The notes beneath the pieces are model-generated. The model was not told the origin of the DNA. It saw nothing but the letters and a program-made list of their open reading frames with translations, and searched no databases. DNA of 64,000 nucleotides from assembly GCA_965217585.1 (NCBI GenBank), contig OZ244561.1, forward strand, positions 3,584,001-3,648,000, in the 5' to 3' direction. Shown one piece after another: positions 39,196 to 60,210 of this stretch; the stretch's first letter is position 1; each line of letters opens with the position of its first letter. The translations under genes were made by a program, and so were the position numbers. This DNA comes from Candidatus Latescibacterota bacterium. Lineage in GTDB: Bacteria; Latescibacterota; UBA2968; UBA8231.

Positions 39196-40113
39196 TCATC
39201 GCGCATCGCCCTCTTCTGTCATGTGCTTGATCTGTCCCCAACTTGCGGATTGCACCGCCGTGGCGGGGAGGTCGCTCGCTGCGCAGCGAAATCCGATGAT
39301 GAGATAAGTCGCCGAAGGCGGCAGCCCACTGCGGTCGGTGGTGCGCAGGCGATACGGATCGCTGCTCATCGACCCGCCCCGAAGCACTCGGCTGATCCCG
39401 GCGTCTGGCCCTTGCGGATCGCGCTTGGGGCTTTGTGCGTAGTAATCCTCGCCGTACCAATCCACCACCCACTCCCAGACATTGCCCCCCATATCGTGGG
39501 CCCCATAGGGAGAAACCCCGCGCTGATAAGAGCCTACCGGGGCCGAGGCGAAAAAGCCGTCGCTGTCGTCGCCGCGGCAGCAGCCCTCCTTACCGTAGTT
39601 GGCCCGGCTGCGGTCGATGTGATTACCCCAGGGATAGATGCGGCCGTCAGTGCCGCGGGCGGCCTTTTCCCACATGGCCTCGGTCGGCAACTGCATGCCG
39701 GCCCAAGTGCAATACGCACGAGCACCGTACCACGAGACCTCGGCGACCGGCCGCTGTTCGGTGCCGGGAATCGGCGCGTATCCCTCGTCGCCGTAGCGGA
39801 TCTGCGCGTCGGCATCGCGCACATCGAGCAGCAGGTGTCCTTCCCCATCCGCGTTGTGGTCGCTGTCGTTTAAAAAGGCAGCGTACTGGTCGTTGTTGAC
39901 TTCAAAACGGTCGATGTAGAATTCGTCGAGATGGACCTGGTGGACTGGCTGTTCGTCCGCCCGTCCCGCGGCCGATCCCATCGCAAAATAACCGGCGGAG
40001 ACGCGGGCCAACTCGTGCATGGTGCCGGCCGGCGTCTGCACTTGGACTATCTCCTGGGCTAAAACACCCGGTGCCCATACCCAAAAGCACCAGAATACGC
40101 TGCTGCGCGTCAT
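39196..40113 (-). CDS. formylglycine-generating enzyme (FGE-sulfatase) domain secreted protein
   Basis: FAMGS, P.HQV, LPTEAMWEKAARG, DMGGNVWEW, RGGS, IGFRCA. C-terminal AVQSASWGQIK. Confidence 0.9.
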   Translation of the reverse strand: MTRSSVFWCFWVWAPGVLAQEIVQVQTPAGTMHELARVSAGYFAMGSAAGRADEQPVHQVHLDEFYIDRFEVNNDQYAAFLNDSDHNADGEGHLLLDVRDADAQIRYGDEGYAPIPGTEQRPVAEVSWYGARAYCTWAGMQLPTEAMWEKAARGTDGRIYPWGNHIDRSRANYGKEGCCRGDDSDGFFASAPVGSYQRGVSPYGAHDMGGNVWEWVVDWYGEDYYAQSPKRDPQGPDAGISRVLRGGSMSSDPYRLRTTDRSGLPPSATYLIIGFRCAASDLPATAVQSASWGQIKHMTEEGDAR

Positions 40114-40204
40114 ACCGCCTCCGCTACATGGCCTTTTTCGTCGCGAGCTGTTGATTTACTTTCCTACATACATAATTACCATCCCCCGTTCCAGCAAAAA
40201 GAAA

Positions 40205-41470: not shown

Positions 41471-41477
41471 ACGGGTA

Positions 41478-42836: not shown

Positions 42837-42879
42837 CCCACTCGCATACGCGACCCTAAAGGACCGTATGCGAGTGGGA
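42836..42879. repeat. 15-bp perfect inverted repeat (hairpin)
   Basis: TCCCACTCGCATACG-N14-CGTATGCGAGTGGGA. Confidence 0.8.
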
Positions 42880-42905
42880 CGCCTGCGATGGCGTCGGTTG
42901 AACGC

Positions 42906-44651: not shown

Positions 44652-44656
44652 GGCGT

Positions 44657-45157
44657 TTAGTCCTTGCAGCTAGCACCCAAGTGGGCGCGGATTTTTTTAA
44701 GTGCTTTGTACTCGCTAGCTCTGGCCGACTCCTCGCTGCATCCCAATCGTGCGGCGATCTCGGCAAAGGGCCAGCCTTCGAAGTTGCGCAGGGCGAAGAC
44801 GGTGCGCTGGCGCTCGGGCAATTCAGCGGCCAAGTCGCGCACTCGGTTCATGAGCAAGCGGTGCTCAGCGTCTTTGTCGGCATCGGCTTCCACCGCGGTG
44901 TTTTCCTCTTCGTAGAGCAGTGCCCGATGTTGATAGCGCCGGATTTTGAAGGCCGCGTTGGTTGCCACCCGGCAAAGCCATGCCTTGGGGTAGGCAATGA
45001 TCTCACCGCGCATACAGGCCGTGTGGAAGCGCAGGAAGGTTTCCTGAAAGACCTCCTGCGCTTCGTCGGCATTGGCGACGATCGTATAGGCCACCTTGAG
45101 CACTAGGCGTCCGTAGTGCTCCACGGCTTCGGCGCTTATGTCGGCTGATCGGCGCAA
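44657..45157 (-). CDS. ECF RNA polymerase sigma factor
   Basis: EAQEVFQETFLR, AWLCRVATN, LPERQRTVFALR, FAEIA. TTG start tentative. Confidence 0.88.
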   Translation of the reverse strand: MRRSADISAEAVEHYGRLVLKVAYTIVANADEAQEVFQETFLRFHTACMRGEIIAYPKAWLCRVATNAAFKIRRYQHRALLYEEENTAVEADADKDAEHRLLMNRVRDLAAELPERQRTVFALRNFEGWPFAEIAARLGCSEESARASEYKALKKIRAHLGASCKD

Positions 45158-45159
45158 AA

Positions 45160-46278
45160 TTAGTTGGCGGCTAAGAGGGCTTCGATCTGCTCTGCACTCG
45201 GCACGCTGCCCAAAAGACCTGTCTCGGCGAGTCGGCCATCGCGGCCGATCAGCACGTATTGGGGAATGCCTTCGACGCCAAAGCGGCGATACGTCTCGCC
45301 CGTATCTAGCACAATCGGCATGGTGTAGCCGTGTTCGGCGACGAAATCGTCCATGTCTTGGGATTGGTGCGCCGAGTGAAGCGCAACGACTATAAATCCT
45401 TGCTCGGCGTACTGATCGTACAGAGCCTGCACGGTGGGCATCTCGGCTACGCAGGGCGTACACCACGTCGCCCAGAAGTCAATGAGAATCACCGGGGTTT
45501 GATTTAGAGCTTTTAGCTGCTCAGTAGGCATCGGATTGACCCAGCGTTCCGCATCTAAATTGGGGGGCATGGAGCCTTGTTCGAGCTTGCTGCGGTTGAG
45601 CACTCTTTCGGCCTCCTCCATGCCGACGTAGCGCGCCTGGAGAAATTCCCCGTCGTCGCTTAGTTCTGCCTTGTCGTAGGAGTAGTCGATCATGCCCATC
45701 CCTGCGGTGCCTACGGTGCGCAATCGCGCGTGCTCTCCCTCCTGTAGTGTGGGAGTCATGCGCAACACGGCGTTGGGGGCGATCTCAAGGTGCCTCTCTT
45801 CCCCCTCCCTGACTACACGCGCTGGCCCCAATAACACCCACTGGTGGTCATCCAGATTCTTAACGGCAATGCCCAGATCATTTCCCGTGCCCCAGCCGCT
45901 ACTTTGTGCGTCGGCCAAGAAGGTCGTGTCGATTCCGGCAAACTCGCCCACCGCCAGCTTCTGGCGGACGCAATTGAGTCGCTGGTTGGCGATGTCGCGC
46001 ACGAAGTAGCGGCCATTGGGATGGCGCACTTCGGCGGTTGAGCCGCCTTGTATGGTGGGCACTGCTCCCTTCTCCACTTGGCCCAGCACTACGTGCCAGA
46101 CCAGATCGTCGGTGCCGTCCACTCGCCGGGCGTGCAGCCAACCATCTTCAATCCACGCTTCAATGCGCCCGTGGTCAAGGTCGCGCTGCTCGCTCCAAGA
46201 AGTCTCGGTGGCGGCGCTCGCCCGCAGGCTGAGCAGCAGGGCCACTGCTGCCGTGGCAATAATCGTTCGATTCAACAT
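45160..46278 (-). CDS. secreted TlpA/redoxin-family protein with an unknown N-terminal domain
   Basis: Signal peptide, DFWATWCTPC and GIP cis-Pro loop at the C-terminus. Confidence 0.85.
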   Translation of the reverse strand: MLNRTIIATAAVALLLSLRASAATETSWSEQRDLDHGRIEAWIEDGWLHARRVDGTDDLVWHVVLGQVEKGAVPTIQGGSTAEVRHPNGRYFVRDIANQRLNCVRQKLAVGEFAGIDTTFLADAQSSGWGTGNDLGIAVKNLDDHQWVLLGPARVVREGEERHLEIAPNAVLRMTPTLQEGEHARLRTVGTAGMGMIDYSYDKAELSDDGEFLQARYVGMEEAERVLNRSKLEQGSMPPNLDAERWVNPMPTEQLKALNQTPVILIDFWATWCTPCVAEMPTVQALYDQYAEQGFIVVALHSAHQSQDMDDFVAEHGYTMPIVLDTGETYRRFGVEGIPQYVLIGRDGRLAETGLLGSVPSAEQIEALLAAN

Positions 46279-46383: not shown

Positions 46384-46411
46384 AAAAAAACCGCCTAGTC
46401 GCCCAGGCGGT
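46384..46411 (-). terminator. intrinsic terminator closing the secreted-protein block
   Basis: Minus strand ACCGCCTGG-GCGA-CTAGGCGGT followed by a T run. Confidence 0.8.
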
Positions 46412-46440: not shown

Positions 46441-49089
46441 CTACCGCTCGACCCCCGCGTAAATCGTGATAAAGCTCCGCGTCGTCAATTCGCTCCGCCG
46501 ACCCTCGAAGCTGGTTCGCGTCAGCTCGAAGCCGAGGGTCGTAGTCAACAGGTACCCTATGTAGTCCGAGGTATTGGTCAGTTGTGCCGTGGTAGTCAGC
46601 CCGCGGAAGCTATCCTCCGCGCCCGGTGGCGTGGGATTTTGCAACTGCGAGAAGATCTCGTATTCCACGCCGGCCTCGACGGTGCTCCTGCGCATCAGCG
46701 GGAAGCGGAGTATCAGCATCAGCAGTTCGTCGAGCTCTAGGCGCGTCGGCATCCCGGCAAGCACTGGCCGGCGGCGCGAGAATTCGCTCTTCCAACGCGG
46801 CATCAAGGTCCACCCTCCTGCGCTCAAGCGGTATTCCGCCTTGTTGATCACGCCCAAAAACGAGGCTGTCTGGCGCAAACCCCTCAACTCCAAGTCGATC
46901 CGGCCATCCAATTGGCGGTGGAACTGCCACTTGGCCTTGTGCTCCAGACGCAATCCCGCAAAAGGCCGCTGCTCCCAGCCGAACCACGACGTGCCGAGGA
47001 CGGTATTGCGCGCTGCGAGGGGATCCTCCACCCCGTATAGCGCCCCCCGCGTATTGGGCTGCTGCCTCCACTGGAGGAGGGGGTCGGCGATATTGTCCCG
47101 CACTTTGCGCAGATCCTCGAAGAGCCGCACCCGACCCCAGCGGTTGAAGTCGCGGTCGAACGTCAACACCCCGTAGAGGGCTTGGTTGTGCTCCGCAGCC
47201 GCCAGTCGGCGCATATCCATCCTCCCCAGCATCAGCCGCACGCCCGGCAACAGATGGGCACCGCCGAAGGCGTTGTAGCCCTCCCGGTCGCGGCGATAGG
47301 GCAGGTCGGCCTCCTCGTCGTTTTCAAAGCGATCAATGGTGCCGTTGTGGTTCATGTCCATCCCGTAGAGGAATTCGGGCCGGTCTGAGTAGTAGCGCAG
47401 GAAGGGCTCCTCGTAGTCGGGGATCAGGTTTGGGCTGTCCTCGTTGTCATTTTGGTTGAAATCGGAAATAAAGTCGTTGTTCTCGTCCCACCCGGGAAAG
47501 ATCTCGCGGTCGCCCGGTGCCCATCCCTTGCGCCGCCAGTCGGGACGGCGGTCCTGATCGTCGTTGTCTGCGACGAACTCGTAGCGCTCGAAGTGGTTGC
47601 CGTAGTCGAGCCTGCCCTCCTTGCCGGCGGTCACCATCGAGGTCTGGTAGGTCGGGTCAATGCTGAACGCCTCGAGCAAAAAGAAGTACGGGTAGGGCGT
47701 GCTGGAAAGGTTGGCGAACCAGGCTAGGGCCTCGTCGCCGGTGGTGTGGTGCCGTTTGCGGTTGGGGTTGGGGAATTGCCGGTAGCGGTTGTTGACGGCA
47801 ATCTCCGCATATCCGGCGAACCCGGCTAGGTCGGTCAACTCGAAGGTAAACCCGGCGATCTGGTTGGCCGTCGGCAGCCCGTAGTTGAAGAACAACACGC
47901 GCTGGTTGGAGCCGTCTTGGACGTTGCCCCGGGCCTGGGCCACCGGCAGGAAGACGATCGCGTCGTCGGCGTTGACTTGGTTGTCGGAGGCGACCTCAAT
48001 CAGATAGTCGTTGGCCACCACCAGTTCCACCGCGATGCGGGTGATCTCGGTCGGGTCAACGCCGATATAGCCGGCATCGGCTAGGTCGTAGCGCACCAAG
48101 ATCTCCTCCAACCCGTCCGCCGCCAAAAAACCTTGGCGCTGGAGGCCGCCCTCGATGAGTGGCCGGAAGCCGATCTCGCTGGCGCGCGTCTCGTTCCCCT
48201 CTAAATCGTACACCAGCAGGTCGCTGGCGAAAAGCGCTCCCCCTCCTTTGCCGTCCTCGGGGGAATCGTCGCGGATGCGGATCTCGATCATCGTCACGGG
48301 CGTGAAATTCAGCGCCTCGGTTAGCTGCCCTTTGAAGATATCGCCGTTGACTGCCTGCCGCTGGGTCTGCGAGTGATGCGCGTTGACCAGCGTGCCCCCG
48401 ACCTTGACGAAGTCTCCTACTTGGATCTCTAGTCTGCCGCCAAACAAGTTGGTATTGTTGGTGCGCTGCGAGGCCTGCGTGCCTCGGGCGGTGAAGATCG
48501 AGTTGGGTTCCGAAATCCGCGACATCAACAGCGTCGCCTGATACTTGTCGGCGGCGTAGTCGATCTGCAGGCCGTTGAAGACCGGATTGGAGAAGGTCAT
48601 GGGCGTCAGGGTGGTGCGGATGTAGTTGCCGACGGTGATGGCGTAGTGGTGCTCCCCTTTGTGGTCGGAGGCGATCACTAGGTTGCTGAACCAATTGCGG
48701 AACTGCTGGGTCTTGTGCACCGCGCTGCCGAAGGGTTGGGGATTTTCCTGCCGCCAGTCGTAGATCAACCACCCCCGGGTCAGGAAATTTCCATAGACGT
48801 CGTAGAAGTAATCGCCCTCCAGCGCGGTGAAGACGTAGCGCTGGTAGTTTTCGCGTGCGTAGTTGGAGTATTCCCACTGTTTCCAACGGTATTCGGCGTA
48901 GAGTTCCTGCGGCACGTACCACTTGCGGATGGCGGGATCGAGCGCGTCGAAAATCACGCCGGGGCCTCGGGGCTCGTAGGTGACTCGGCCGCCGCGCTGG
49001 ATGGTGCCCAAGCGGGCGCCGTAGTCCTGGGCTTGGGCGGCGTCAACCAGAAGCGCGGCAAGCAGGGACATCAGTGCGCTGTATTTCAT
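46441..49089 (-). CDS. large secreted hypothetical protein, putative outer-membrane barrel with Dx[DN]xD loops (paralog A)
   Basis: Signal peptide, acidic DENND/DMNHNG loops, alternating beta-strand C-terminus (SFITIYAG). Paralog of 51038-53707. Confidence 0.7.
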   Translation of the reverse strand: MKYSALMSLLAALLVDAAQAQDYGARLGTIQRGGRVTYEPRGPGVIFDALDPAIRKWYVPQELYAEYRWKQWEYSNYARENYQRYVFTALEGDYFYDVYGNFLTRGWLIYDWRQENPQPFGSAVHKTQQFRNWFSNLVIASDHKGEHHYAITVGNYIRTTLTPMTFSNPVFNGLQIDYAADKYQATLLMSRISEPNSIFTARGTQASQRTNNTNLFGGRLEIQVGDFVKVGGTLVNAHHSQTQRQAVNGDIFKGQLTEALNFTPVTMIEIRIRDDSPEDGKGGGALFASDLLVYDLEGNETRASEIGFRPLIEGGLQRQGFLAADGLEEILVRYDLADAGYIGVDPTEITRIAVELVVANDYLIEVASDNQVNADDAIVFLPVAQARGNVQDGSNQRVLFFNYGLPTANQIAGFTFELTDLAGFAGYAEIAVNNRYRQFPNPNRKRHHTTGDEALAWFANLSSTPYPYFFLLEAFSIDPTYQTSMVTAGKEGRLDYGNHFERYEFVADNDDQDRRPDWRRKGWAPGDREIFPGWDENNDFISDFNQNDNEDSPNLIPDYEEPFLRYYSDRPEFLYGMDMNHNGTIDRFENDEEADLPYRRDREGYNAFGGAHLLPGVRLMLGRMDMRRLAAAEHNQALYGVLTFDRDFNRWGRVRLFEDLRKVRDNIADPLLQWRQQPNTRGALYGVEDPLAARNTVLGTSWFGWEQRPFAGLRLEHKAKWQFHRQLDGRIDLELRGLRQTASFLGVINKAEYRLSAGGWTLMPRWKSEFSRRRPVLAGMPTRLELDELLMLILRFPLMRRSTVEAGVEYEIFSQLQNPTPPGAEDSFRGLTTTAQLTNTSDYIGYLLTTTLGFELTRTSFEGRRSELTTRSFITIYAGVER

Positions 49090-49130
49090 CAATTGCACTG
49101 TCACTTTCGTTTTTAATGGTAGAACGAGCA

Positions 49131-51041
49131 TTAATACGCCACCCCCAGCGTCCCCAGATGTCGCTCCTCAAACGCGTCTGCCTGCACCCGCAATACCCAC
49201 ACATAGGTTCCCGGTGCCAGCAACTTCCCATCCGCGGTCCTTCCGTCCCAACCGTAACGCGTCGGCCCGATCCCCCGCTTCCCCACAAACGCCCTGTGCA
49301 TCCGCCGCCCTGCCAAGTCGAACACGTCCAGCGCCACCGGTGCCGGCTCGACGATCTGCAACAGGTTGAAAAACATCTCAAACTGGTCGTTGACCCCGTC
49401 CCCATTGGGCGTGAACACCCGCGCGTTGGTCGCGATCTCGCCGACTAGTTTGCCGATCTGCGGTTTGGGGATTTCTACTGCCAGCCCCGCAAGCTCGTCC
49501 TGGTCCGCTGGCCCGAAATCCACGACCTGCCCCGGCGCGACGATCTGCGGTACCGTCGGAAATCGGCTGTTGTAAGCGCGACTGGAGAACGTGGTGCCGA
49601 AGCGGAAGATCGGCAGGTCATAGGTGAATTCCAGCACGGCCCCGTCTCTGCGCACCAATGCAAAACTCAGCCGAAAGCCCTCTTGGTGCGCGTATTCTAC
49701 TGCGAAATCCACCGCCTGCCCGTCTATGCGCACATTGCGGATATTCTCCACCGGCGCGTTGGAGTCCACGGCCAATGCGTCGTAGCCGCGCACCGCCCCG
49801 TTAGCCCTCAGCAACACTGCGTAATGGAACGTCGCCGGCTTTTCCGCTTCGGCCAGCCGCGGAAAGACCTCGGCCCGGAGGGTGTCGGCGATCGGCGGGT
49901 GGAGGTAGTCGAATTCGAGCCGGTCGACGAGGCGCGTATCAAAGAGCCGGCCTGCAAAGGCAAACTGCAACTGGATAAAGCGCCGCGGCCCCGGTGCTGT
50001 TACTAGGCCGCCGTTCAACACGCGCTGCCACGGGCTCCAGTTTTCTTCGTCCTCCTGCGGCGGCAAGCGCTTGGGGCGGTCCAGCGACCAGTATTCGGCG
50101 GCGCTCACCTCGACGTCTGTCAGCAGTGAGAACGGATCTTCAGCCTCGACTCGCTGCCGATAGATGATCGGCGTATCGTCTAGCCCGGTGCGCACTCGCG
50201 CCGTCAGACGGGAAAAGGGCGCTTCGCCAACTACCTCCTCCACCCAGCGCACCTCGCCGACGGTGGCGGGAGTCCCTAGGTCGAGCAGGTCCGTCTGGTA
50301 GGTCGCCCGGTTCATGTAGCCCGTGCCATAGACCTCGATCTCGTCGATCTCGAAGGGCACCTCCGACAGCGAACGCAACTTTACCAGCCGCACGTACTGG
50401 GGCTTGACCGCCACATCGATCACTGGGTCCTCGTTTTCCAACTCGCGGATCACCAAAATGTCCGGCGAACCGCTGACGCGGTTGGTCTGTCGCGGGTTGA
50501 CCCACAGTTCGTAGGCGCGCAGGAAGTCGTCTTGGTAGGGCTGGCGCGGCGTGGCTGCCACGGTGTTGCGCGGATAGAAGCGCACCCGCTGCACGCCCAC
50601 CTGTGGGACAAAGTCGAGGATGATCCAGATCCCGTAGGCCGGAACCAGTGGGTTGAAGGGGGTGGGTTTGCGCTCGAAGGCGATGGCGTGGTCGCCGTTG
50701 ACGATGCCGCGGAGCTGGGCCTTCCGCAAATCGGTGTACTTAGTTATTGCATTGGGTGCCCTAACCGAGCCTTGGCCTTCGAGCACTAGGGAGGCGATAT
50801 TCTCCTCGCCGTCGAAAAAGCGCGGGCTGATCGACTCCGGCCAATGAACGAAATCGACCGCGCCCACCAGCACGTTGCTCGTATCCACTTGCGGCCGGTA
50901 CCGAGGGCCGAACAAGAATTCGGGATCGATGCCGTCGCCGCCGCCTTCCCAGTCGTGCTCAACCCCGCCGAGCACGAAGGTGCGCACTTGGCCGTCGGCA
51001 TTTATTGCCAGCAATAATAGCGCCGCGAAAGCCCAGTTCAT
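49131..51041 (-). CDS. secreted discoidin-like + FlgD-Ig protein with FTPNGDGxND tail
   Basis: Signal peptide, EIDEIEVYG, FTPNGDGVND, WDGRT, ends LGVAY. Confidence 0.78.
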   Translation of the reverse strand: MNWAFAALLLLAINADGQVRTFVLGGVEHDWEGGGDGIDPEFLFGPRYRPQVDTSNVLVGAVDFVHWPESISPRFFDGEENIASLVLEGQGSVRAPNAITKYTDLRKAQLRGIVNGDHAIAFERKPTPFNPLVPAYGIWIILDFVPQVGVQRVRFYPRNTVAATPRQPYQDDFLRAYELWVNPRQTNRVSGSPDILVIRELENEDPVIDVAVKPQYVRLVKLRSLSEVPFEIDEIEVYGTGYMNRATYQTDLLDLGTPATVGEVRWVEEVVGEAPFSRLTARVRTGLDDTPIIYRQRVEAEDPFSLLTDVEVSAAEYWSLDRPKRLPPQEDEENWSPWQRVLNGGLVTAPGPRRFIQLQFAFAGRLFDTRLVDRLEFDYLHPPIADTLRAEVFPRLAEAEKPATFHYAVLLRANGAVRGYDALAVDSNAPVENIRNVRIDGQAVDFAVEYAHQEGFRLSFALVRRDGAVLEFTYDLPIFRFGTTFSSRAYNSRFPTVPQIVAPGQVVDFGPADQDELAGLAVEIPKPQIGKLVGEIATNARVFTPNGDGVNDQFEMFFNLLQIVEPAPVALDVFDLAGRRMHRAFVGKRGIGPTRYGWDGRTADGKLLAPGTYVWVLRVQADAFEERHLGTLGVAY

Positions 51042-53707
51042 AGCTTCAACCCCGCGTTGATAGTCATAAAAAGCATGCTGGAGCGCTGGTCTTCGCTGTG
51101 GTCAAAATCGCGCCACAGCCACTGCGCTCCTACTCGGGTCACCAATTGGTAGCCGGCATAGCCCACCCTGTTCGTTAGCTGGATCACCAGCGTCCGGCCC
51201 ATAAAGTCCTCCGCCACCTCCGGGTGCCTACCCTCCAGCATCCAGAACCGACTCCACTCCAACCCGCACTGTAGCTGGGTGTCGAATATCTGGCGGCCGT
51301 GCCGAGCATAATAGCTGATCGAGACCTGCTCGGCTAGGATCGGCTGCACCCATAGCAGGAACAAGGTCTGTTCCAAGCTCTCCGCCACGGGCGCACGGCT
51401 GTGGAAGGGCCGGACGCGGCGGTACTCGCTCTTCCAGCGCGGTTCCACCCGGCCCAGCCCCAAAGGCACCGTCCACTCGGCCTTGTTGATCACGCCGAGA
51501 AAACCCGAGCTGGCGCGTCCTTCGCGACTGCGGAGCACCGCTCCATTCCCGCGCTGCCACCAACCCTCCCACTTGAAGCGGTGCATGTGGCGCAGACCCC
51601 AGCCAAAAGCCTGTTCCCAGTCGGCGTACAACGCGTTGCGCCAAGCGTTGTCCCCCGGCAGTCGGTCCACAAGAGTCTGCATCCGCCCCACCGCGCCCAC
51701 CGGCTGTACCCATTGCTCCAAGTCGTCCGGGATGTCGTCCCTGACGAGCGCCGCGAAATCGAAAAACCGCAGTTGCCCGCCTCTAAGACTCCAGCGCGCC
51801 GCTGCCAGCGCGTACACCGCATGGGTCTGACCATCCCCGGAAATCAGCCGCACTCGCTGGTGGCCCAGCGCCAAACTCGCATCCGGCCCTAGATGCCCGC
51901 GTGCGTACATATTGAAACCGCGATGGTCGCGCTTGTAGGGGTAGTCGGGCAAGAGGTCGTTCTCGAATCGGTCGATCGCGCCGTTGTGGTTGAGGTCGAG
52001 GCCGAAGAGGTACTCTGGTCGGTCCGAACGAAACCGCAGGAAAGGTTCCTCGTAATCGGGTATGCGATTGCGGTTCTGGTTGTGGTCGTAGATGAAATCG
52101 CCGTTCTCGTCGTAGCCGGGAAAGGCCTCCCGCGAAAAATGCTGGAAGGGCCGTTCCCACTCCGGGGTGCCGTCGTGGTCGTCGTCGTCATCGACGAATT
52201 CGTAGAGGTCGGGAACCGGCGCTTGATAGCGAATATCGCCGTTGCCCTGCACGAGCCAGTAGTTGGTCGAATAGCCGTCGGCCAGCGAGAACAACTCCCC
52301 GGCCATATTCCAGGGATAGCGCTCGTAGGCCACCTCGGCGTACGCGGCGTGGGCGCTGTTGACGAAGTGGTGCAGGTGCTTGGTGTCTCGGCTGGGGTAC
52401 ATGCCGTGCTGCCGGTTGACCACGGCCTCGCCCCGGAATGAGACGCCGTGCCACTCGACCAAGTCCCAGTTGATCCCAAGCAGTTCGTTGGCGGTGGGCA
52501 ACCCGTAGTCTAGGCGCAGCACTTGGCTGTTGCTGTTGTCTTGGACATTGCCCGGCGATCGCACGACAGGGAAAAACACGATCTGCGGGTCGCGCCGCTC
52601 GCCGTCGGTCTGCAAGTTCGAGGCCATCTCGACCCGGTAGTCGTCGGCGACCACCAGTTCGACTGCCGCCCGGCGCAAGGTAGCCGAGCGCAACCCTTCG
52701 TAGTCGAGGGCGGCGAAATCGTATTCGAGCAGGACCGTCTCCGAACCGTCGGCTACCAGCGCCCCAGCCCGCGTCCGCCCTCCCTCAATGCGCGGCAAAA
52801 AGCCGATTTCTCGCCCGCGCACCTTGTGTCCACTGGTATCGACCAGCACGATGTCGTACCTGAACAGCGACGTGCCACTCACCCCGTCGGCTGGCGAATC
52901 ATCCCTGAGCCGCACCCACAGTTTGTCCAGCGGCTTGTTCTGGCCGGTGGTCAGCGTTCCGTACAGGGGATTGCCATATGTAATCCGCACCTGGCTTTGC
53001 GCGTTGTGGGCGTTGATATACGTAACGCCAAGGAGCACCGCGTCGCCGGCTTTGAACTCGGCGTGGCCTCCCAACAGGTGCGTGATATTGGTGCGGTCAG
53101 CCCTGTTCGGCTGGCTCGGCCGCGACAGCAGCAGGCTCCCCACGTGGCGCTCGTTGGCCCAGTCGAGGCGCAGCCCGTTGAAGTTGGTCTTGTTGAAGGT
53201 CAAAGGCGTGAAGACGGTGAAGATCCCGTCGCCGATCATCAACCGCGCGCTGGTTCCCCTGCTCTCGTCCGAGGCGATCACCAGATTCTGGAAGAATCCC
53301 CCGTAAGGCCATCCTTTGCGGATCAAACTGCCATCGCGTTTGGCTTGCTCCTGTTCCCAGGTATAGACCATCCAGCCGCGTCCTATGCGGTGGCCGAAGG
53401 TGTCGTACCACGCCTCGCCCTCTAGGCCAGCGTTCACGAGGGTCCGGTAGCGTTCTCGCGCGTAGGAGGTACGGTCGCCGCCGTACCAGGGCTGCATGTA
53501 GCTTTCGGCCAGATGTCGGGGCGCGTACCAGCGGTGCATTCGCGGCGTGACGTATTCTATCTCGAAGTGCGGCACTTCCCATGCGGTCACTGGCGGGCCC
53601 TGCAGCCCCCACCGGCTCGCGTCCTCATTTTGCGCCTCGACCGCTAGCGCGCGCAACGTGCAGCAGGCCAAGACGCCTGCCAACCAAGCTCTTCTCCGTT
53701 CGGTCAA
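51038..53707 (-). CDS. large secreted hypothetical protein, putative outer-membrane barrel (paralog B)
   Basis: TTG start overlaps the upstream TGA. Shares NLVIASD, YGLPTAN, PDYEEPFLR, DRFEND, GVINKAE, PRWKSE with 46441-49089. Confidence 0.7.
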   Translation of the reverse strand: MTERRRAWLAGVLACCTLRALAVEAQNEDASRWGLQGPPVTAWEVPHFEIEYVTPRMHRWYAPRHLAESYMQPWYGGDRTSYARERYRTLVNAGLEGEAWYDTFGHRIGRGWMVYTWEQEQAKRDGSLIRKGWPYGGFFQNLVIASDESRGTSARLMIGDGIFTVFTPLTFNKTNFNGLRLDWANERHVGSLLLSRPSQPNRADRTNITHLLGGHAEFKAGDAVLLGVTYINAHNAQSQVRITYGNPLYGTLTTGQNKPLDKLWVRLRDDSPADGVSGTSLFRYDIVLVDTSGHKVRGREIGFLPRIEGGRTRAGALVADGSETVLLEYDFAALDYEGLRSATLRRAAVELVVADDYRVEMASNLQTDGERRDPQIVFFPVVRSPGNVQDNSNSQVLRLDYGLPTANELLGINWDLVEWHGVSFRGEAVVNRQHGMYPSRDTKHLHHFVNSAHAAYAEVAYERYPWNMAGELFSLADGYSTNYWLVQGNGDIRYQAPVPDLYEFVDDDDDHDGTPEWERPFQHFSREAFPGYDENGDFIYDHNQNRNRIPDYEEPFLRFRSDRPEYLFGLDLNHNGAIDRFENDLLPDYPYKRDHRGFNMYARGHLGPDASLALGHQRVRLISGDGQTHAVYALAAARWSLRGGQLRFFDFAALVRDDIPDDLEQWVQPVGAVGRMQTLVDRLPGDNAWRNALYADWEQAFGWGLRHMHRFKWEGWWQRGNGAVLRSREGRASSGFLGVINKAEWTVPLGLGRVEPRWKSEYRRVRPFHSRAPVAESLEQTLFLLWVQPILAEQVSISYYARHGRQIFDTQLQCGLEWSRFWMLEGRHPEVAEDFMGRTLVIQLTNRVGYAGYQLVTRVGAQWLWRDFDHSEDQRSSMLFMTINAGLKL

Positions 53708-56238
53708 TAGACCACCCCCACCAAGCTCGCGGCCTCGGTTTTTCCCGCACCCACATCGGCGGTGAAACCGACGCGCACCAAATAGGTCCCCGGCGGCACC
53801 AGTACCCCTGCGTCGTCGCGACCATCCCAAGCCACCAAGTGGTCGCCGCTGGGGTTTTCCCGGCGCAGCGAAAGCTCGCGCACCTTGCGGCCGGACAGGT
53901 CGTAGATCCCGACCTCAATCCGCCTTCCCCGGATGAGGCGGTAGATGGTAAAGCGGATCTCGGCTTGGTCGTTTATGCCGTCGCCGTTGGGGGTGAAGAC
54001 TTGGGGCAGCGAATGCACCCGGTCCAACAGCGGGAAGTTTTCCACGTCGGCCACTACCACCAGCGACTGGCTCGCAGCCAGCGACCCAGCGTCGCCCTCG
54101 CTTATCGCCTGGACGATCCCGGGTCGGGTCGCGCGTTTCAATTCGGCACCAAAAGCGGTACCGCTCAAAAACACCCGCGTGCGGAAACGCGCCTCGTACA
54201 ACGACTGCCCACCGGTGACCGGCGCGGGAAAAGCCAATTCCACGGACCCGTCCTCCAGCCGCTCTAGACCCAGTGGTCCCGGCCATAGCTCCCGCCCGGT
54301 GCCGGCGCGCAACTGTGCCTCGTTGCCCTCGCGGAAGGAGATTAGCTCAATCGGGACCGAGGACGACGAGTGCAGCCGGATTCGGTCGAAGCCGGAGTTT
54401 CCGGGACCAAAAACCGAGCGGATATACATGGAGAAGAGCTGATCTGCCCCTGGCTCCACCCCATCGATAGGCCACACCTCGGCGAAGGTCTGGTCCACCA
54501 ACGGCGGTGCCAACTTAAGCCGCAAGCTCCTCATCTGCGCCGTACGCAGCGGTTCTTGGGTCAAAAGCCGTAGCTGCGCTTGGACGAAGCGCCGGGGGCT
54601 GGGCGACTTGAATGGCTCCCCCGACGTTAGATAAGCTGCGCTCCAGTTGCTCCATCCTGGCCCCGGTATTTCCCGAACTAGCACCTCGCCGCGGTTTTTC
54701 TCGTAGCGGATGGCCTCCCACTCCTCCTCGCTGATTTCTTGTCCCACCGCGTCGAAGTAACGCCGCTCCTCAATCACTTCGTCACCGCTGCGGGTGCGGA
54801 TCTCTAGCTGGGTGCTCGGGGGCTGGTCTCCGTCCCATTCCACTGCGGAGAAGATCCGCGAGCGGCCTAGGTGGATAACGGGCGATTCGAGCGCGACCTT
54901 GGACACGTAGCCTTCGCCATAAGCTTGGAACTCGCTCAAGTTGCCCGTCTCGGTACGCTCCCCCACTAACACTAGCTCCAAACGTCTCAGTTCCAAATAG
55001 CGCACCTCTCGCAGGGGGAACTGCTCCTCTAGCTGTAGAAAGGACTCCCGATTCTGCCGCTCCTCCAAAGCCTCCCACAACAGCGAGCCATCGGGGTCTA
55101 AACTGCCATCCGAGATCCGGAGCTGATAGGCGCTTAAAGGCCCCTCGGCGCTGACTAGGCGCACCCGGTCCAGCCAGAACTGAGCCCCTAGGTCAACTAT
55201 GAGCTGGTTGCGGTCGCGCACCGAGTCGTAAATCCGCAACGGGTAGAAGGAGCGGAAGAGGCCATCGGTCGCCAGCGCGAGCAGGAGATTGTCGAAGATG
55301 GTCACGTTGCGATTGCGGATCCGCTGGGTCAGATTGACGACATTGTCCCCTAGGGTATAGACCTCAAGCTCGGCCAAGCGCGGCCGCTCGCGGCGAAAAT
55401 AGCGCACTAGGCCCTGCTCCTCCTCGGGCAAATCCCGATGCGTCTGCTCGTCGATTAGGATTTGGCGGCCGATGACCGTCTGGCGGAAGTACTCGACCGT
55501 CCCTTGGTCTGCGGGCAATAGCGCCTCGTAGGTGGCCCTATCTACTTCCTCGCCTCGCGTACTGTCCGCAGCCAACGCCTGAAAGCGCACGATCTGCGCC
55601 ACTTCTCCCTCGACTCCAGCGGGCAAGGGGCGCTGGGGACGGACCTCGAAGCTGAACTCCCGCTCTGTCTTGTTGGGGTACGTCACCTGCCCGACGCGGA
55701 AGAACTTTAGCTGCCGCCGCCGATCCGATACTGGATATTCTCGCCCGTCCGAGAGCAGCACCCTGAACTTGAGGAAGGGATCGCCTGACTGGGCGAAGCG
55801 CACAACCACCCTTTTGGCGATCACCGTTCGCCCTAGTTCCACATCGACAAACCAGTCTTTCAGTGGGTCGGCCGGATCGGGCTCCCAGTAGGTGTCTTGG
55901 TCCCCGTCTATTATGAACGGTGCCTGCTCTGCGCTGCTGCCCGCCATGCGGATCCCCCCCACCAACGTGTCTCCGCTGACCTCCGCGGTCTCGAACTCCA
56001 CCGCGTTGAGCGCGGCGTTGATGTCGCGGCGCAGGAAGCGGGGCAATACCGCACCTTCCGCCGCAACTACGTGCGTCCCTACAGGTGCCTCCCATTCGGC
56101 CCAGTGCGCCGCTTGGTCGATGACAACCTCGTCTCGCGTCAGCCGGTAGCCGGTCTGAGCGACGAGGACGAGTGGATGCGTCAATAATAGACAAAGTAGC
56201 GCCGGCCAGGCCCGACCAATGGATGCCCTTGGGTTCAT
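53704..56238 (-). CDS. secreted protein with two discoidin-like modules + FlgD-Ig FTPNGDGxND tail
   Basis: Signal peptide, LAELEVY and LSEFQAYG, FTPNGDGIND, WDGRD, ends VGVVY. Alternative start at 56295. Confidence 0.78.
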   Translation of the reverse strand: MNPRASIGRAWPALLCLLLTHPLVLVAQTGYRLTRDEVVIDQAAHWAEWEAPVGTHVVAAEGAVLPRFLRRDINAALNAVEFETAEVSGDTLVGGIRMAGSSAEQAPFIIDGDQDTYWEPDPADPLKDWFVDVELGRTVIAKRVVVRFAQSGDPFLKFRVLLSDGREYPVSDRRRQLKFFRVGQVTYPNKTEREFSFEVRPQRPLPAGVEGEVAQIVRFQALAADSTRGEEVDRATYEALLPADQGTVEYFRQTVIGRQILIDEQTHRDLPEEEQGLVRYFRRERPRLAELEVYTLGDNVVNLTQRIRNRNVTIFDNLLLALATDGLFRSFYPLRIYDSVRDRNQLIVDLGAQFWLDRVRLVSAEGPLSAYQLRISDGSLDPDGSLLWEALEERQNRESFLQLEEQFPLREVRYLELRRLELVLVGERTETGNLSEFQAYGEGYVSKVALESPVIHLGRSRIFSAVEWDGDQPPSTQLEIRTRSGDEVIEERRYFDAVGQEISEEEWEAIRYEKNRGEVLVREIPGPGWSNWSAAYLTSGEPFKSPSPRRFVQAQLRLLTQEPLRTAQMRSLRLKLAPPLVDQTFAEVWPIDGVEPGADQLFSMYIRSVFGPGNSGFDRIRLHSSSSVPIELISFREGNEAQLRAGTGRELWPGPLGLERLEDGSVELAFPAPVTGGQSLYEARFRTRVFLSGTAFGAELKRATRPGIVQAISEGDAGSLAASQSLVVVADVENFPLLDRVHSLPQVFTPNGDGINDQAEIRFTIYRLIRGRRIEVGIYDLSGRKVRELSLRRENPSGDHLVAWDGRDDAGVLVPPGTYLVRVGFTADVGAGKTEAASLVGVVY

Positions 56239-56245
56239 GCCGTCG

Positions 56246-56273
56246 GTGGGGGCGACCGGCCGGTCGCCCCTAC
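56246..56273 (-). repeat. REP-like palindrome
   Basis: GTAG-GGGCGACCGGCCGGTCGCCC: a GTAG tetranucleotide followed by a perfect palindrome. Confidence 0.7.
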
Positions 56274-56296
56274 ATGCGTAACGTCCGTTGTTCATA

Positions 56297-58099
56297 TCAG
56301 TACGCCACTCCCACCGAGCCCCAGCGGCGCTCCAACTCCTCGTCGGCTTCTACCCGCAACTCGTACAGATACAGCCCCGGCGGCACTAATAAACTCCGGT
56401 CGTCCGTCCCGTCCCACTCCAGCGCATACGACCCGTTGCCGTCCGTCCCCTCATAGGCCCGCCGCACTCGGCGACCGGCCAAGTCGTACATCTCTAGAGT
56501 CACCGTGGCCTCAGTAGTGAGCTTCAACAGTGCATAACTCAGCGCGAAGGCATCGTTGGCCCCATCGCCGTTGGGCGTGAACAGCCGAGGTCCCTCCAAC
56601 TGCGCCACCAGCGGCACGTTGCCGTCCGCGAAGCGCACGACCAGATTGGTCCCTTCCAGCGAGGGGTCCACATCGCGCTCGTCGGCCACTTGATAGGCCT
56701 CTTCGAGTTGACCGTCTTCGCCCCTGCGGTCTAATGCCCGCACCTCAAAGCGCGTGTAGTCGCGGAACACAGCGCCGCGAAAGACGATCTGCACGAAGGT
56801 CCCCGTCTGCTCGATGTGCCGCCACAAGTTGACGTCGAAGCCTTCGCCCGGCTTGTTGGTGGAGGTAAAGGAAATTTCCTTGTCATCGATAAGTATCTGC
56901 TCGATTTCCGTTACCTGCGCGGCCGTGCGCACCTGCAGAAAGCGGAAGCCCGTAGCTTGCAGATTTCGGCCCCTGGCGTCGCGCAGGTGCACTTCCATAG
57001 AGAGGGTAAAGCGCGTCTCGACGCCCGGCTGCACGACGCCGGGGCTGATTTCGGCCAGCAGGCTGCCGACCACCGGCGGCCGCGCAAATTCGAAGACCAG
57101 CCGCCTGAGCACGGCCCCCGGTGAGGTCATGCGCACCTTGAATTGCAAGAAGCGGCGCAGCCCCGGCGAGCGCATCAGACCGCCACTGACCGTCTGCCAG
57201 CTACTCCACAGTGGATTGGGTTTGACCGCCCCCTTTTCCGCATCGGGCAATGCTTGGTAATCCTCTCTGCTCACCCGTTGCAGGCCGTCCTCCGCCTCGG
57301 GGTCTAGGCGGAAGTGGTGCTCGGGGTCGCGGTCGGGGCCGGTGCGCGTCTGCACGGTGGCCGGGGCGTTTTCTATGGAGCCTCCCTCGTAGCGCACTTT
57401 GCCCCAGACGATGTTGGTATAGCGCGCCCGGACCGGCCTAGAGACATAGGTGCCCACGGGCGCGTCACCAGCGCCGTAGATTTCCACTTCTGCCAATTCC
57501 CACTCGCGCTCCGTGCCAGGCTCTATGTGCACGTAGCGCACGTCGCGGCTAGCAAAGGGCTGTTCCACCACCGGCTCGACGTTGGGGGTGGCGGCGAGAA
57601 AGCTGATGGCAGGGGTGTACTCTGCTTGGCGCTCGGCTTGGGTGTAGAGGCGAAAGACCTGTAGGAAGCGGCGTCTGTTCTGGCGGTCAAGGCGCGGGAA
57701 GAGGCGGACGCGATTGACGCGGAAGACGGCGCCGAGGTCGATCTCTACGGGCGTACTGCGGCTGAAAGCGGCAAACCGATCTGGATCGAAGGCCGTAGCG
57801 GAATTGCCGTCGTAGAGCAGAGTGCCTATGGGCACGCGGAGGATTCCATTGGGATTTGCCACCAGCCCCACCGCCATGCCCCCGCGCTCGGCCAAGCGCA
57901 GTGACAGGTTTTCGCCGGGCTCTGCCGGCCACATCCAGATGGAATCGCGCGCTACCCCTAAGAACCGAACCTCCTCGACAATGCTGTCCCAGCGGCCTAG
58001 GCGGCCGTCTTGGCCCACGTCGAGAGTATCGACGGCCAACGCGGAAGTGGCGCTACAGAGGAGGCCGATTAACAGGGTGTGGTGTATGGCTTTATTCAA
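56297..58099 (-). CDS. secreted discoidin-like + FlgD-Ig protein with FTPNGDGxND tail
   Basis: TTG start and signal peptide, IDLG..VNRVRLFPR, ELAEVEIYG, FTPNGDGAND, ends VGVAY. Confidence 0.78.
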   Translation of the reverse strand: MNKAIHHTLLIGLLCSATSALAVDTLDVGQDGRLGRWDSIVEEVRFLGVARDSIWMWPAEPGENLSLRLAERGGMAVGLVANPNGILRVPIGTLLYDGNSATAFDPDRFAAFSRSTPVEIDLGAVFRVNRVRLFPRLDRQNRRRFLQVFRLYTQAERQAEYTPAISFLAATPNVEPVVEQPFASRDVRYVHIEPGTEREWELAEVEIYGAGDAPVGTYVSRPVRARYTNIVWGKVRYEGGSIENAPATVQTRTGPDRDPEHHFRLDPEAEDGLQRVSREDYQALPDAEKGAVKPNPLWSSWQTVSGGLMRSPGLRRFLQFKVRMTSPGAVLRRLVFEFARPPVVGSLLAEISPGVVQPGVETRFTLSMEVHLRDARGRNLQATGFRFLQVRTAAQVTEIEQILIDDKEISFTSTNKPGEGFDVNLWRHIEQTGTFVQIVFRGAVFRDYTRFEVRALDRRGEDGQLEEAYQVADERDVDPSLEGTNLVVRFADGNVPLVAQLEGPRLFTPNGDGANDAFALSYALLKLTTEATVTLEMYDLAGRRVRRAYEGTDGNGSYALEWDGTDDRSLLVPPGLYLYELRVEADEELERRWGSVGVAY

Positions 58100-58113
58100 T
58101 TTGCTCGTCTCGT

Positions 58114-60210
58114 CTATTCGAGTTTGACCATTTTGCGGGCGTGCGTCTGGTCGTCCACCTGCAACCGATATACATAGACTCCGGTGGCGACGGGTTGCCC
58201 CTGCGCGTCGCGGCCATCCCAAGTTAGCTCGTGCTCGCCAGCGGGCAGCGGACCCGTCCACACTCGGCGCATCGGCTGTCCTAGGATGTTGTAGATGGTC
58301 AAGTCCACGTTCTTGGCTCCGGCGGGCACGGTCAAGGGGATCGTCGTGGCCGGATTGAACGGGTTGGGATAGTTGACACCGAGGGCAAAGGAAGCTGGAG
58401 TTGCCGCCTCAGCCGCTACGGCGGTGGCCCGGGTGCCTTGGTTGATAAAGACGAGGACGCCGCCGTGGTCGCTTGTCGGACTCGTTCCCAGCACGACTAG
58501 ATCGGGGTCGCCATCGCCGTTGACATCGCCGGTGAGTGCTTGATTGCCTTCGCCGGGCAGGGGATAGTAGCCTTCGAGGACGGGTGCGCCGTTGGGCTGG
58601 CCGAGCCACACCACGAGTGCCGGACCGACGGTCGAGTTACTCGCGACTATGACCACATCGAGGACGCCATCGCCGTTGAGGTCGCTGGTCGTGGCGTCTG
58701 ACGGGAGCACCTTCCAGTCGAGCAAGGAATCGCGTGTCCACTCGCCGGAGGCGTCCAGACGCCACAGGGCCAAGCCATGATAGAACCAATCTATGCGCTC
58801 GGGGGAGCCGAGTAGGTCCATCGTCCCATTGTCATCGAGATCGGCGATCAGGTGCAGGTTCAGGTTGCAGGGATCGACCGGGGCCTCGACAACGAGCGGC
58901 GGGTCCTCAATGGCAGCCCACGGCCGGGTTAGTTGCCAAGAGTCAGATTCTTGGGGCTGATGGCAGGATGGGCGCCACAACAGGCTGGCGGCTTCGCCGA
59001 GGGGTTGCCCGGCGGGTAGGTAGGGCCAGCGCGCCTCCTCGCTGTCGAGGACGAAGGTGTTGCTATCGACAAAGTCGTAGCCGTCGTTGATCCACAGGCT
59101 TACTTGGGATTGGGCCAAGTGATCGGAGTCGTCGAACTCCTGAATCAATAGGTCCATGTCGCCGTCGCCGTCGCCATCGGCCAAGCCAAGGAGCCAGACA
59201 TCGAACAGTTGCAGGGCGGGATCAAAGCCGCCACCCCAGTTGTACCACAGCTCGACGATCTCGCCTTCGGTAACGACCAGATCGAGGAGTCCATCGCCAT
59301 CGAAGTCGCTTCCCCACAGGTCCATGATTGGAACGTTGTCCCAAGATGCGGTTGAGAGGAGGAACTCTTGGGTAGGTTCAAAGCGGCCTAGCCCATCGTT
59401 GGACGCCACCGTCCAGCCCATTTGGCTTTCGCGGTCCACGCGGCGGTTCCAGAGCACCACGAGATCGGCATCGCCATCGCCGTCCACGTCGCCCACCGCG
59501 CCGTGCGAGGCATATAGATAACTTGAGCCGATGCCCTCGCCGAGCGGGAAAAAGTCGGGATCGGCGAACAAGGTGCCGGGCGGCCCCAACTCCACACCGA
59601 GATCCCTAGGCGACAATTCCCCCTGCGCCAACTCTTCGGCCCCGGTGAGCTGAATCCAGTCTAGTTCTAAAAACTTTGGATGATTGTCCACATCCTGCGA
59701 GTCCCGATATAACAGCATGTCTATCTGAAAATTGAAAAGGGTATCCTGCCAGGTGATCGCCCTGTTTGGGTCTGTTGTCAAGGCGCGTAGATCGATGGTA
59801 ATTTCTTCCCATTCGATGGGATAGGATTGAGTATGGCCCAACCCGTTTCTGCCAGAATCAGGGAGGCGGCTCACGGCGTTGGACCAGCGCATCGAGAATT
59901 GTTGTCCCTCAGTGGGGCTGTGGTGTATGATACGCAGCCGTAAGGTGAGGCGGTCGAACAGGGCGGAGTCTTTGCCGATCAACGGCGAGCGCAACTGAAC
60001 GGCGGGTCTGATACCAAGCCCAGACACGGGAGCAATGCGCCAGACGCCATCGACGATTTCGCTCTTCAATGGCTCTTTATTACCTCTTCTGCTATAATCA
60101 CCTTCCCAGGCGGTCCAGCCCCAAGTGGAGCCGTCGGCGAAATCCCACGTCAGGGCAAAGGCTCCGTGTGGAGCCGCCAACAATAGAATTGCAAAGAGCA
60201 TGTAGCGCAT
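58114..60210 (-). CDS. FG-GAP/VCBS repeat protein with T9SS type-A-like (NYPNPFN)/FlgD-Ig C-terminal domain
   Basis: Signal peptide, multiple GDVDGDGD.DL repeats, NYPNPFNPATTI, WDGRD, RKMVKLE. Confidence 0.88.
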   Translation of the reverse strand: MRYMLFAILLLAAPHGAFALTWDFADGSTWGWTAWEGDYSRRGNKEPLKSEIVDGVWRIAPVSGLGIRPAVQLRSPLIGKDSALFDRLTLRLRIIHHSPTEGQQFSMRWSNAVSRLPDSGRNGLGHTQSYPIEWEEITIDLRALTTDPNRAITWQDTLFNFQIDMLLYRDSQDVDNHPKFLELDWIQLTGAEELAQGELSPRDLGVELGPPGTLFADPDFFPLGEGIGSSYLYASHGAVGDVDGDGDADLVVLWNRRVDRESQMGWTVASNDGLGRFEPTQEFLLSTASWDNVPIMDLWGSDFDGDGLLDLVVTEGEIVELWYNWGGGFDPALQLFDVWLLGLADGDGDGDMDLLIQEFDDSDHLAQSQVSLWINDGYDFVDSNTFVLDSEEARWPYLPAGQPLGEAASLLWRPSCHQPQESDSWQLTRPWAAIEDPPLVVEAPVDPCNLNLHLIADLDDNGTMDLLGSPERIDWFYHGLALWRLDASGEWTRDSLLDWKVLPSDATTSDLNGDGVLDVVIVASNSTVGPALVVWLGQPNGAPVLEGYYPLPGEGNQALTGDVNGDGDPDLVVLGTSPTSDHGGVLVFINQGTRATAVAAEAATPASFALGVNYPNPFNPATTIPLTVPAGAKNVDLTIYNILGQPMRRVWTGPLPAGEHELTWDGRDAQGQPVATGVYVYRLQVDDQTHARKMVKLE

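Follow-up and report, generated by a model that had tools for sequence, protein, structure and literature searches.

A string of five genes on the minus strand of a Latescibacterota genome probably encodes one copy of a major, undescribed cell-surface capture system. The string lies in a stretch of 64,000 nt (contig OZ244561.1 of assembly GCA_965217585.1, positions 3,584,001 to 3,648,000; hereafter the window), where it occupies positions 46441–58099 in the order cargo1, cargo2, barrel1, cargo3, barrel2, with stops and starts that touch or overlap. In the reading that we prefer, with a probability of roughly 45%, the cargos are type-B-like substrates of a type IX secretion system (T9SS) and a giant barrel of a novel kind retains them at the surface in the role of PorP/SprF. 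This reading builds on the two gene families, their predicted folds, the kinship of the cargo tails, the exclusive pairing of the two families, and the presence of T9SS core genes. An initial annotation of the stretch, made without database searches, had proposed five tightly spaced or overlapping genes with interleaved cargos and partners, and the open reading frames (ORFs) and their junctions agree with it.

The five genes would be one copy, doubled, of a Latescibacterota surface-display cassette. Its three lectin-like cargos would be exported by Sec, and their type-B-like C-terminal domain would route them through the SprA-type T9SS translocon. They would not be passed to PorV/PorU; the co-encoded giant barrel would receive them and hold them non-covalently at the surface, as a carrier and anchor comparable to PorP/SprF in Bacteroidota, probably via two large inserts at its surface, of which one resembles a calcium-binding segment. 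The outcome would be one of about 50–80 alternative lectin-barrel modules on the cell surface. By analogy, the best-supported view is that the cassette works like the PorP/SprF system without being a member of it.

Cargo tails, barrel architecture and T9SS genes

The other two cargos are 27% and 32% identical to cargo3. All motifs that had been listed for the cargos are invariant columns in the three-cargo alignment, i.e. E234, Y238 and G239 (E.E.YG), R284 and G286, W335, S336 and W338, P350, R353, R354, F355 and Q357, A390, E391 and P394, F543–D552 (FTPNGDGxND), W598, D599 and G600, and the terminal G633, V634 and Y636. The tails match the Pfam family CHU_C (PF13585) above its cut-off of 27 bits, with 33.9, 31.7, and 31.8 bits for cargo1, cargo2, and cargo3, respectively, and the matches end within about 12–20 residues of the C-terminus in all three proteins; among paralogs in the genome, CHU_C scores go up to 55 bits. 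FlgD_ig matches are likewise present in all three (29.0 bits in cargo1 and 34.1 bits in cargo2), and a profile comparison also matches FlgD Ig domains. At the structural level, residues 529–636 of cargo3 superimpose on the C-terminal domain of PorU (6za2) with a Z value of 12.3 and a root-mean-square deviation (rmsd) of 2.4 over 99 residues.

In the AlphaFold model of cargo3 (pLDDT 89.6), several beta-sandwich domains follow one another. Residues ~77–243 superimpose on CBM32 modules with Z values of 15.2–13 and rmsd values of 2.1–3.0 over 123–142 residues; the best superposition (Z 15.2, rmsd 2.1) covers 123 of 126 residues and points to a jelly-roll fold like that of CBM32/discoidin modules. 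The cargos differ from these modules in that their matches to F5_F8_type_C (PF00754, cut-off 28.2 bits) are below the cut-off (cargo2, 23.2 bits; cargo1, 17.9 bits) or, for cargo3, absent, and in that the cargo modules are not attached to an enzyme. An enzymatic domain was found neither in the Pfam scan of the cargos nor in the structure search with cargo3. The predicted folds suggest that the cargos are lectin-like proteins, composed of CBM32/discoidin-fold and Ig-like sandwiches, which may bind sugars.

Barrel1 and barrel2 share 331 of 861 aligned residues (38%, 536 bits), and their alignment contains all the motifs recognized at the outset (NLVIASD, YGLPTAN, IPDYEEPFLR, FLGVINKAE, and PRWKSE). 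Neither protein matches any Pfam or NCBIfam family at E ≤ 0.01, PorP/SprF models included, in agreement with the initial annotation, which had described the partners as far larger than PorP/SprF and without recognizable similarity. Barrel2 was modelled with AlphaFold from an alignment of 58 sequences. The model (pLDDT 83.3, pTM 0.82) is all-beta, with about 23 long antiparallel strands (estimated range 22–24). Foldseek returned only outer-membrane barrels, i.e. SlpA (E 8.2e-8), followed by MtrB, LptD, SprA, and FimD. VIA-align yielded Z values of 14.0 to 10 against FhaC, CymA, TamA, Sam50, BamA, SlpA, LptD, and FimD, and the longest alignments were those with SlpA (377 residues), LptD (342 residues), and the ushers (316–343 residues).

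Because the model matches only outer-membrane barrels and no family model matches the sequence, barrel2 appears to be an outer-membrane barrel of no known family; as modelled, it is a beta-barrel with long antiparallel strands and alternating short and long turns. The barrel nature of the partners, which had been put forward as a possibility, is thus supported by the prediction. SlpA, MtrB, LptD, and FimD/PapC are the best structural matches (316–377 residues aligned at Z 10.0–12.5), but the Foldseek TM-scores are at most 0.25, sequence identity to the large barrels is 6–11%, and none of them has a counterpart of the barrel-family inserts. A profile of the barrel family gave a single chance match against all PDB sequences (E 0.038, an unrelated enzyme). 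In the ESM Atlas, the nearest clusters are unnamed, and the nearest named one, DUF6029 at 0.89, counts as no more than a lead.

Two long inserts interrupt the barrel2 model. Insert 1 (residues ~256–410) is beta-sandwich-like. Insert 2 (residues 492–615, window positions 47287–47658) is acidic and contains an EF-hand-like DxNxNGxIDxxE motif; the near-invariant D/N/E columns at 522–615, which represent most of the near-invariant acidic columns of the family, lie inside it. In the DSSP string, counted back from the C-terminus, turns of 2–5 residues alternate with longer loops, and this alternation suggests that both inserts are extracellular. Searches of the acidic insert and of residues 1–100 on their own gave no Pfam match at E values up to 10, so that the EF-hand- or dockerin-like look of DMNHNGTIDRFE fits no family.

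A separate segment of barrel2, residues ~57–100 (window positions 48832–48961), is aromatic-rich and near-invariant among close members of the family (RKWYVPQELY…W.YSNYAR), yet its pLDDT is 29–36. Its folding may require contact with a partner or a place in the barrel interior.

T9SS core genes are present in the genome. SprA is represented by an SprA_N match of 80.3 bits in a frame of 2153 aa, with the gene at genome positions 3680827–3682278, only ~33 kb beyond the end of the window. PorU scores 627.5 bits (cut-off 420), and a PorV-like gene (153.8 bits) is adjacent to it; the pair is located at 577760–583936 (0.58 Mb). The PorP/SprF models PF11751 and TIGR03519 matched nothing in this genome, the control of the TIGR03519 search being blank as well.

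Pairing of the two families in the genome and in the phylum

The genome is a single contig of 7.32 Mb, estimated from marker genes to be 94.6% complete with 6.9% contamination, and close relatives of its proteins are labelled Latescibacterota. A census was performed with phmmer (E < 1e-10) against the 10,067 ORFs of at least 150 aa. It revealed 80 barrel-family and 176 cargo-family ORFs, which form 80 clusters, i.e. 47 mixed, 6 barrel-only, and 27 cargo-only clusters. The mixed clusters contain 71 of the 80 barrels and 131 of the 176 cargos. Summed by hand, the clusters amount to ~0.66 Mb, or roughly 9% of the genome. The five genes occur again at 5.68 Mb; the proteins of this second copy are 52–60% identical to those of the window, and cargo1 is located at the opposite end.

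The tail type is exclusive to the cargo family. A loose tail motif, [FYLIVM][TS]P[ND][GNAS]D[GS].N[DE], was sought in the last 130 aa of the ORFs. The FTPNGDGxND-type motif was found in 121 ORFs genome-wide, every one of them a member of the cargo family; a type-A-like NPFNP tail is present in at least 106 further ORFs. Of the 176 cargo ORFs, 7 are without a tail match, and these include short, probably spurious ORFs.

Two of the cargo-only clusters consist of tandem paralogs of ~630–720 aa. The first (genome positions 444069–453113) contains four paralogs with the strongest CHU_C matches of the genome, 50–53 bits, and the second (5352782–5358747) contains three. Both are without an adjacent barrel and have a DUF6785 gene at a distance of 2–4 kb.

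For other genomes, loci were gathered with a 20-row barrel alignment, and 80 of them were fetched. A cargo ORF is situated beside the barrel in 78 of the 80 loci, and the two loci without one are contigs 5.6 and 3.4 kb long. The closest outside loci keep the cargo-cargo-barrel-cargo-barrel order. A library clustered at 50% identity contains at least 789 representatives of the barrel family (E ≤ 1e-3). The recurrent adjacency of the two families that the initial annotation anticipated is therefore evident both from the 47 mixed clusters of this genome and from the 78 loci elsewhere. A prediction of soluble partners, a lack of recurrent adjacency, or a match to a characterized family, which it had named as outcomes contrary to its proposal, did not occur.

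A sample of 151 genomes was compared across the phylum, including 63 of the same family and 30 and 19 of two barrel-less families of the same class. The barrel was found in 93 of the 151 genomes, with 63/63 in its own family and 0/30 and 0/19 in the two barrel-less families. CHU_C is present in all 63 genomes of the own family, mostly with 9–32 matches each and best E values of mostly 1e-8 to 1e-14. In the two barrel-less families there are 0–5 matches per genome, with E values no better than ~1e-6. Strong CHU_C tails follow the barrel across the phylum. PF11751 matches occur in 29 of the 151 genomes, i.e. in none of the 63 genomes of the own family and in 25 of the 30 genomes of a barrel-less sister family. 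SprA was found in 143 of the 151 genomes (62/63 in the own family). Because genomes within a clade are kin, these patterns represent few independent contrasts.

Anchor, pore or scaffold

Passages in PMC9143113, PMC12618676, and PMC12635249 describe type-B cargos as binding and needing cognate, adjacent PorP/SprF-like barrels, a receiving role shown with SprB and PG1035, and this requirement supports the anchor reading for the barrels studied here. The cassette has several traits in common with the T9SS type-B/PorP-SprF systems (SprB-SprF, PG1035-PorP, Fjoh_3952-Fjoh_3951): the CHU_C-type Ig-like cargo end with an FTPNGDGxND-type motif, the side-by-side arrangement of cargo and outer-membrane barrel with many pairs per genome, and the SprA translocon. 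Orphan cargos are also a shared trait, since F. johnsoniae has them too (PMC12618676). In contrast, PorP/SprF proteins have roughly 300–400 aa, whereas the barrel has ~890 aa with two large inserts, no match to PF11751 or TIGR03519, and no CxC tail. The copy numbers also differ, 80 barrels and 176 cargos here versus the 12 type-B substrates given for F. johnsoniae in PMC12618676, and the host phylum is outside Bacteroidota.

Several observations weigh against the anchor reading. In sequence, the barrel shows no relationship to PorP/SprF, and it is two to three times longer. The C-terminal CxC motif is missing from both barrels; the translations show that barrel2 is without any cysteine and barrel1 without a cysteine near the C-terminus. 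According to a passage in PMC12635249, the Cys-Xaa-Cys in the periplasmic C-tail of close SprF homologs serves track attachment, not carriage. The initial annotation had linked the tails to the T9SS and to type-B model TIGR04131. The T9SS type holds, in view of the CHU_C scores and the PorU-domain superposition, but the membership does not, as cargo1, cargo2, and cargo3 reach 23.2, 19.0, and 22.4 bits at a cut-off of 35 bits. One of the best-scoring paralogs, the one tested of 176, reaches 33.0 bits.

The T9SS that had been invoked for the cargos is likewise borne out in part, in that SprA, PorU, and PorV-like genes are present, but searches of this genome for GldL and GldM had no result; as the controls of both were blank, too, absence is established neither by these searches nor by that with TIGR03519. 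The presence of SprA does not discriminate between readings, because nearly all genomes of the phylum have it. There are 2.2 cargos per barrel, and 45 of the 176 cargos are located away from any barrel. The PorP-like matches of the sister family are marginal (20–28 bits in frames of 265–485 aa). As that family is moreover poor in CHU_C, the complementarity of barrel and PorP is a weak argument that comes down to about two clades. A complex prediction with barrel2 residues 55–896 and cargo3 residues 500–636 scored 0.00 in two runs without controls and bears neither way on binding.

The genes around the other copies hint at more than anchoring and thus also count against a purely anchoring role, in that SurA-like peptidyl-prolyl isomerases (PPIases), lipoproteins, and OPT-like inner-membrane proteins recur there. 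Around the 47 mixed clusters, FG-GAP lipoprotein-like proteins recur with 62 members in the vicinity of 36 clusters, and a protein of 313 aa that faintly matches CBM9 recurs with 35 members at 33 clusters. The SurA-like PPIase has 33 members at 32 clusters, the DUF6785+DUF6784 inner-membrane proteins, which match OPT faintly, have 27 at 22, and a lipoprotein of 273 aa has 18 at 17. The window copy shares only the type-A-tailed FG-GAP type and a sulfatase with this set. DUF6785+DUF6784 proteins have 78 matches in the genome, none of them in the window, and the nearest is located at genome positions 3746550–3748043.

An uptake module resembling a polysaccharide utilization locus (PUL) is the main rival, which we regard as possible but less probable than the anchor. 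The barrel would be a gated import pore, the CBM32-type proteins would bind substrates at the surface, and an inner-membrane transporter would complete the path; such uptake may hold alongside an anchoring role. The predicted cargo fold is common to galactose-, GalNAc-, and fucose-binding modules. The barrel paralogs are more conserved than the cargos (38% versus 27–32%), which a constant channel with variable binders would predict. The massive expansion to 80 barrels and 176 cargos on ~9% of the genome resembles PUL expansion, and a sulfatase, a sulfatase maturase, a transporter, and a sigma factor are encoded just downstream in the window. By hand count, 47 of the 78 DUF6785 proteins lie within 10 kb of a cluster, although such zones make up at most 31% of the genome.

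DUF6785 is nevertheless not an obligate partner of the barrel. It is present in 137 of the 151 phylum genomes and equally expanded without the barrel (30/30 and 19/19 in the two barrel-less families), and it was found in 0 of 13 genomes of one family with distant barrel matches. An obligate partnership was thus rejected on the phyletic pattern, and the nearness in this genome stays a hint. Further points against uptake of this kind are that the barrel is without a Plug, TonB-receptor, or carboxypeptidase-regulatory domain, that the genome has TonB-dependent receptors of its own (PF00593, 20 matches), and that the clusters examined contain no embedded glycoside hydrolase.

The initial annotation had named a SusC/D-like glycan-capture pair as its alternative. 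The cassette shares with SusC/SusD loci the massively paralogous pairing of a large outer-membrane barrel with surface proteins of a carbohydrate-binding type. Membership in that family is contradicted by the lack of a Plug or TonB-dependent receptor domain and of a SusD-like helical protein, and no embedded glycoside hydrolases were seen; SusC/SusD binders are lipoproteins, whereas the binders here are T9SS-tailed. A PUL-like working mode is nevertheless possible. A combination, in which Latescibacterota would have a modular nutrient-capture organelle of their own, with giant calcium-binding barrels that both receive T9SS-exported lectins by their tails and act as gated entry pores for what the lectins catch, seems unlikely to us, more so than PUL-like uptake.

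Two further readings are weaker than PUL-like uptake. The barrel could be an export or assembly pore that translocates the adjacent beta-sandwich proteins, usher-like or in the manner of two-partner secretion and independently of SprA, which we consider improbable. The structural matches to FhaC, CdiB, and TamA (Z 14.0–12.7) and to the FimD/PapC ushers (Z 10.0–9.4, 316–343 residues), the tight gene-order coupling at the junctions, and the SurA-like PPIase gene beside the barrel in 32 of the 47 mixed clusters are compatible with such a pore. These matches, however, have rmsd values of 6.5–12 Å and represent generic barrel similarity, and POTRA domains, usher plugs, or chaperone genes were not found in family scans or among the neighbours of mixed clusters. 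In addition, the cargo tail is homologous to T9SS signals, and SprA co-occurs in all 93 barrel-bearing genomes save a few incomplete ones.

Least probable of all, with a very small chance of being correct, is a structural role in the envelope, with the cargos forming the lattice of a surface layer as its subunits and the barrels serving, like SlpA, as tethers or scaffolds of that layer. The Deinococcus SlpA barrel is indeed the top Foldseek match, and VIA-align gives a Z value of 12.5 over 377 residues; the TM-scores are nevertheless only 0.14–0.20, and neither an SLH domain nor a coiled-coil stalk was detected. One uniform lattice is also hard to reconcile with 80 divergent paralogs whose lectin partners have diversified.

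Gene boundaries, neighbouring genes and biological meaning

Table 1. Features of the five-gene string and its immediate surroundings (window positions)
Feature	Position	Strand	Description
cargo1	56297..58099	-	600 aa; signal peptide; weak F5/8-type-C match; type-B-like C-terminal domain ~56300-56590
cargo2	53704..56295	-	863 aa (844 from second ATG); secreted; extra N-terminal discoidin-like module
cargo2 type-B-like C-terminal domain	~53707-54009	-	
barrel1	51038..53708	-	889 aa; paralog within novel predicted outer-membrane barrel family
cargo3	49131..51041	-	636 aa; signal peptide, CBM32/discoidin-fold, two beta-sandwiches, type-B-like C-terminal domain
cargo3 CBM32/discoidin-fold domain	50313-50813	-	residues ~77-243
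cargo3 type-B-like C-terminal domain	~49134-49421	-	
barrel2	46441..49131	-	896 aa (882 from Met 15 codon); two long inserts
hairpin plus T run	46390..46411	-	intrinsic-terminator-like; closes gene string
FG-GAP repeat protein	58114..60210	-	upstream neighbour; 698 aa; type-A-like T9SS tail (NPFNP...KMVKLE)

The five minus-strand ORFs extend over 56297–58261, 53704–56295, 51038–53830, 49131–51041, and 46441–49131. The likeliest start of cargo1 is the TTG at 58099, 14 nt past the stop of the upstream FG-GAP gene, and barrel1 starts with the TTG at 53708, which has one base in common with the stop of cargo2. Cargo3 begins with an ATG (51041) that has an overlap of 4 nt with the stop of barrel1; between the ATG of barrel2 (49131) and the stop of cargo3, the overlap is 1 nt. 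The hairpin just 3′ of barrel2 has 9 pairs, 6 of them GC, followed by a T run. It is the sole terminator-like site directly behind a gene end in the region, in which 7 such sites were observed, versus 12.2 expected from shuffles. A consensus scan revealed no sigma-70-like promoter on the minus strand.

The upstream 698-aa protein matches FG-GAP_3 with 77.3 bits and TIGR04183 with 35.2 bits (cut-off 23). Its gene is probably co-transcribed with the five-gene string, and because it ends only 14 nt before cargo1, the transcription unit may start further upstream and comprise more than five genes. The single terminator after barrel2 described by the initial annotation is thus in place, but the upstream end of the unit may lie beyond cargo1. 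RNA-library contigs (two libraries of one study) cover pieces of all five genes with 92–96% identity, which is a weak hint of expression, as such libraries can hold DNA.

The FG-GAP gene belongs to an array of tandem proteins of ~700 aa with type-A-like tails (NPFNP...KMVKLE/KIE), which occupies window positions 58114–60210 and 62531–64000 and continues to about genome position 3659797. It is interrupted by a 724-aa protein with a C-terminal TlpA/ResA-like thioredoxin domain (60296–62470). Downstream of the terminator, six genes at 39196–46278 encode a 372-aa TlpA/ResA-like thiol-disulfide oxidoreductase, an extracytoplasmic function (ECF) sigma factor, a 581-aa protein, a sulfatase, a major facilitator superfamily (MFS) transporter, and a sulfatase maturase of the formylglycine-generating enzyme (FGE) type. 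The 581-aa protein belongs to no family and is possibly the anti-sigma factor of the adjacent ECF sigma factor. Three kinds of neighbour were rejected as recurrent partners: of their homologs, 1 of 4 (ECF sigma factor), 1 of 1 (581-aa protein), and 5 of 23 (thioredoxin-like genes) lie within 5 kb of a cluster. Elsewhere in the window (28436–31126), an ORF of 896 aa contains GD_AH_second and GD_AH_C (galactarate/altronate dehydratase) twice each and looks like a tandem fusion.

Literature searches (Latescibacterota combined with T9SS, discoidin, or outer membrane; DUF6785) found no paper on the cassette, the outer-membrane papers being judged by titles and the starts of abstracts, and these searches agree with its description as undescribed by the initial annotation. 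The barrel family has no annotation in Pfam, NCBIfam, or the other sources checked and its predicted structure is an outer-membrane architecture that is new and modelled with confidence. The census of the whole genome, the restriction of the tail type to one family, and the phylum-wide co-occurrence of the barrel with strong CHU_C tails are new. The same is true for the observations that PorP/SprF was not found where the barrel was found and that DUF6785 is not an obligate partner.

Should the barrel be the carrier, cargo sorting by the T9SS would rely, outside Bacteroidota, on a receptor that differs from PorP/SprF and is far larger, which would bear on the recognition of type-B signals and on the evolution of the T9SS. 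If it is both receiver and pore, the cassette would be a counterpart of the SusCD utilisome built from unrelated parts, with ~50–80 specificities per cell on ~9% of the genome. No other paralogous gene set of this widespread, uncultured phylum of sediment and water is as large as the cassette, and the ligands of the 176 lectin-like proteins would tell what these bacteria eat or stick to.

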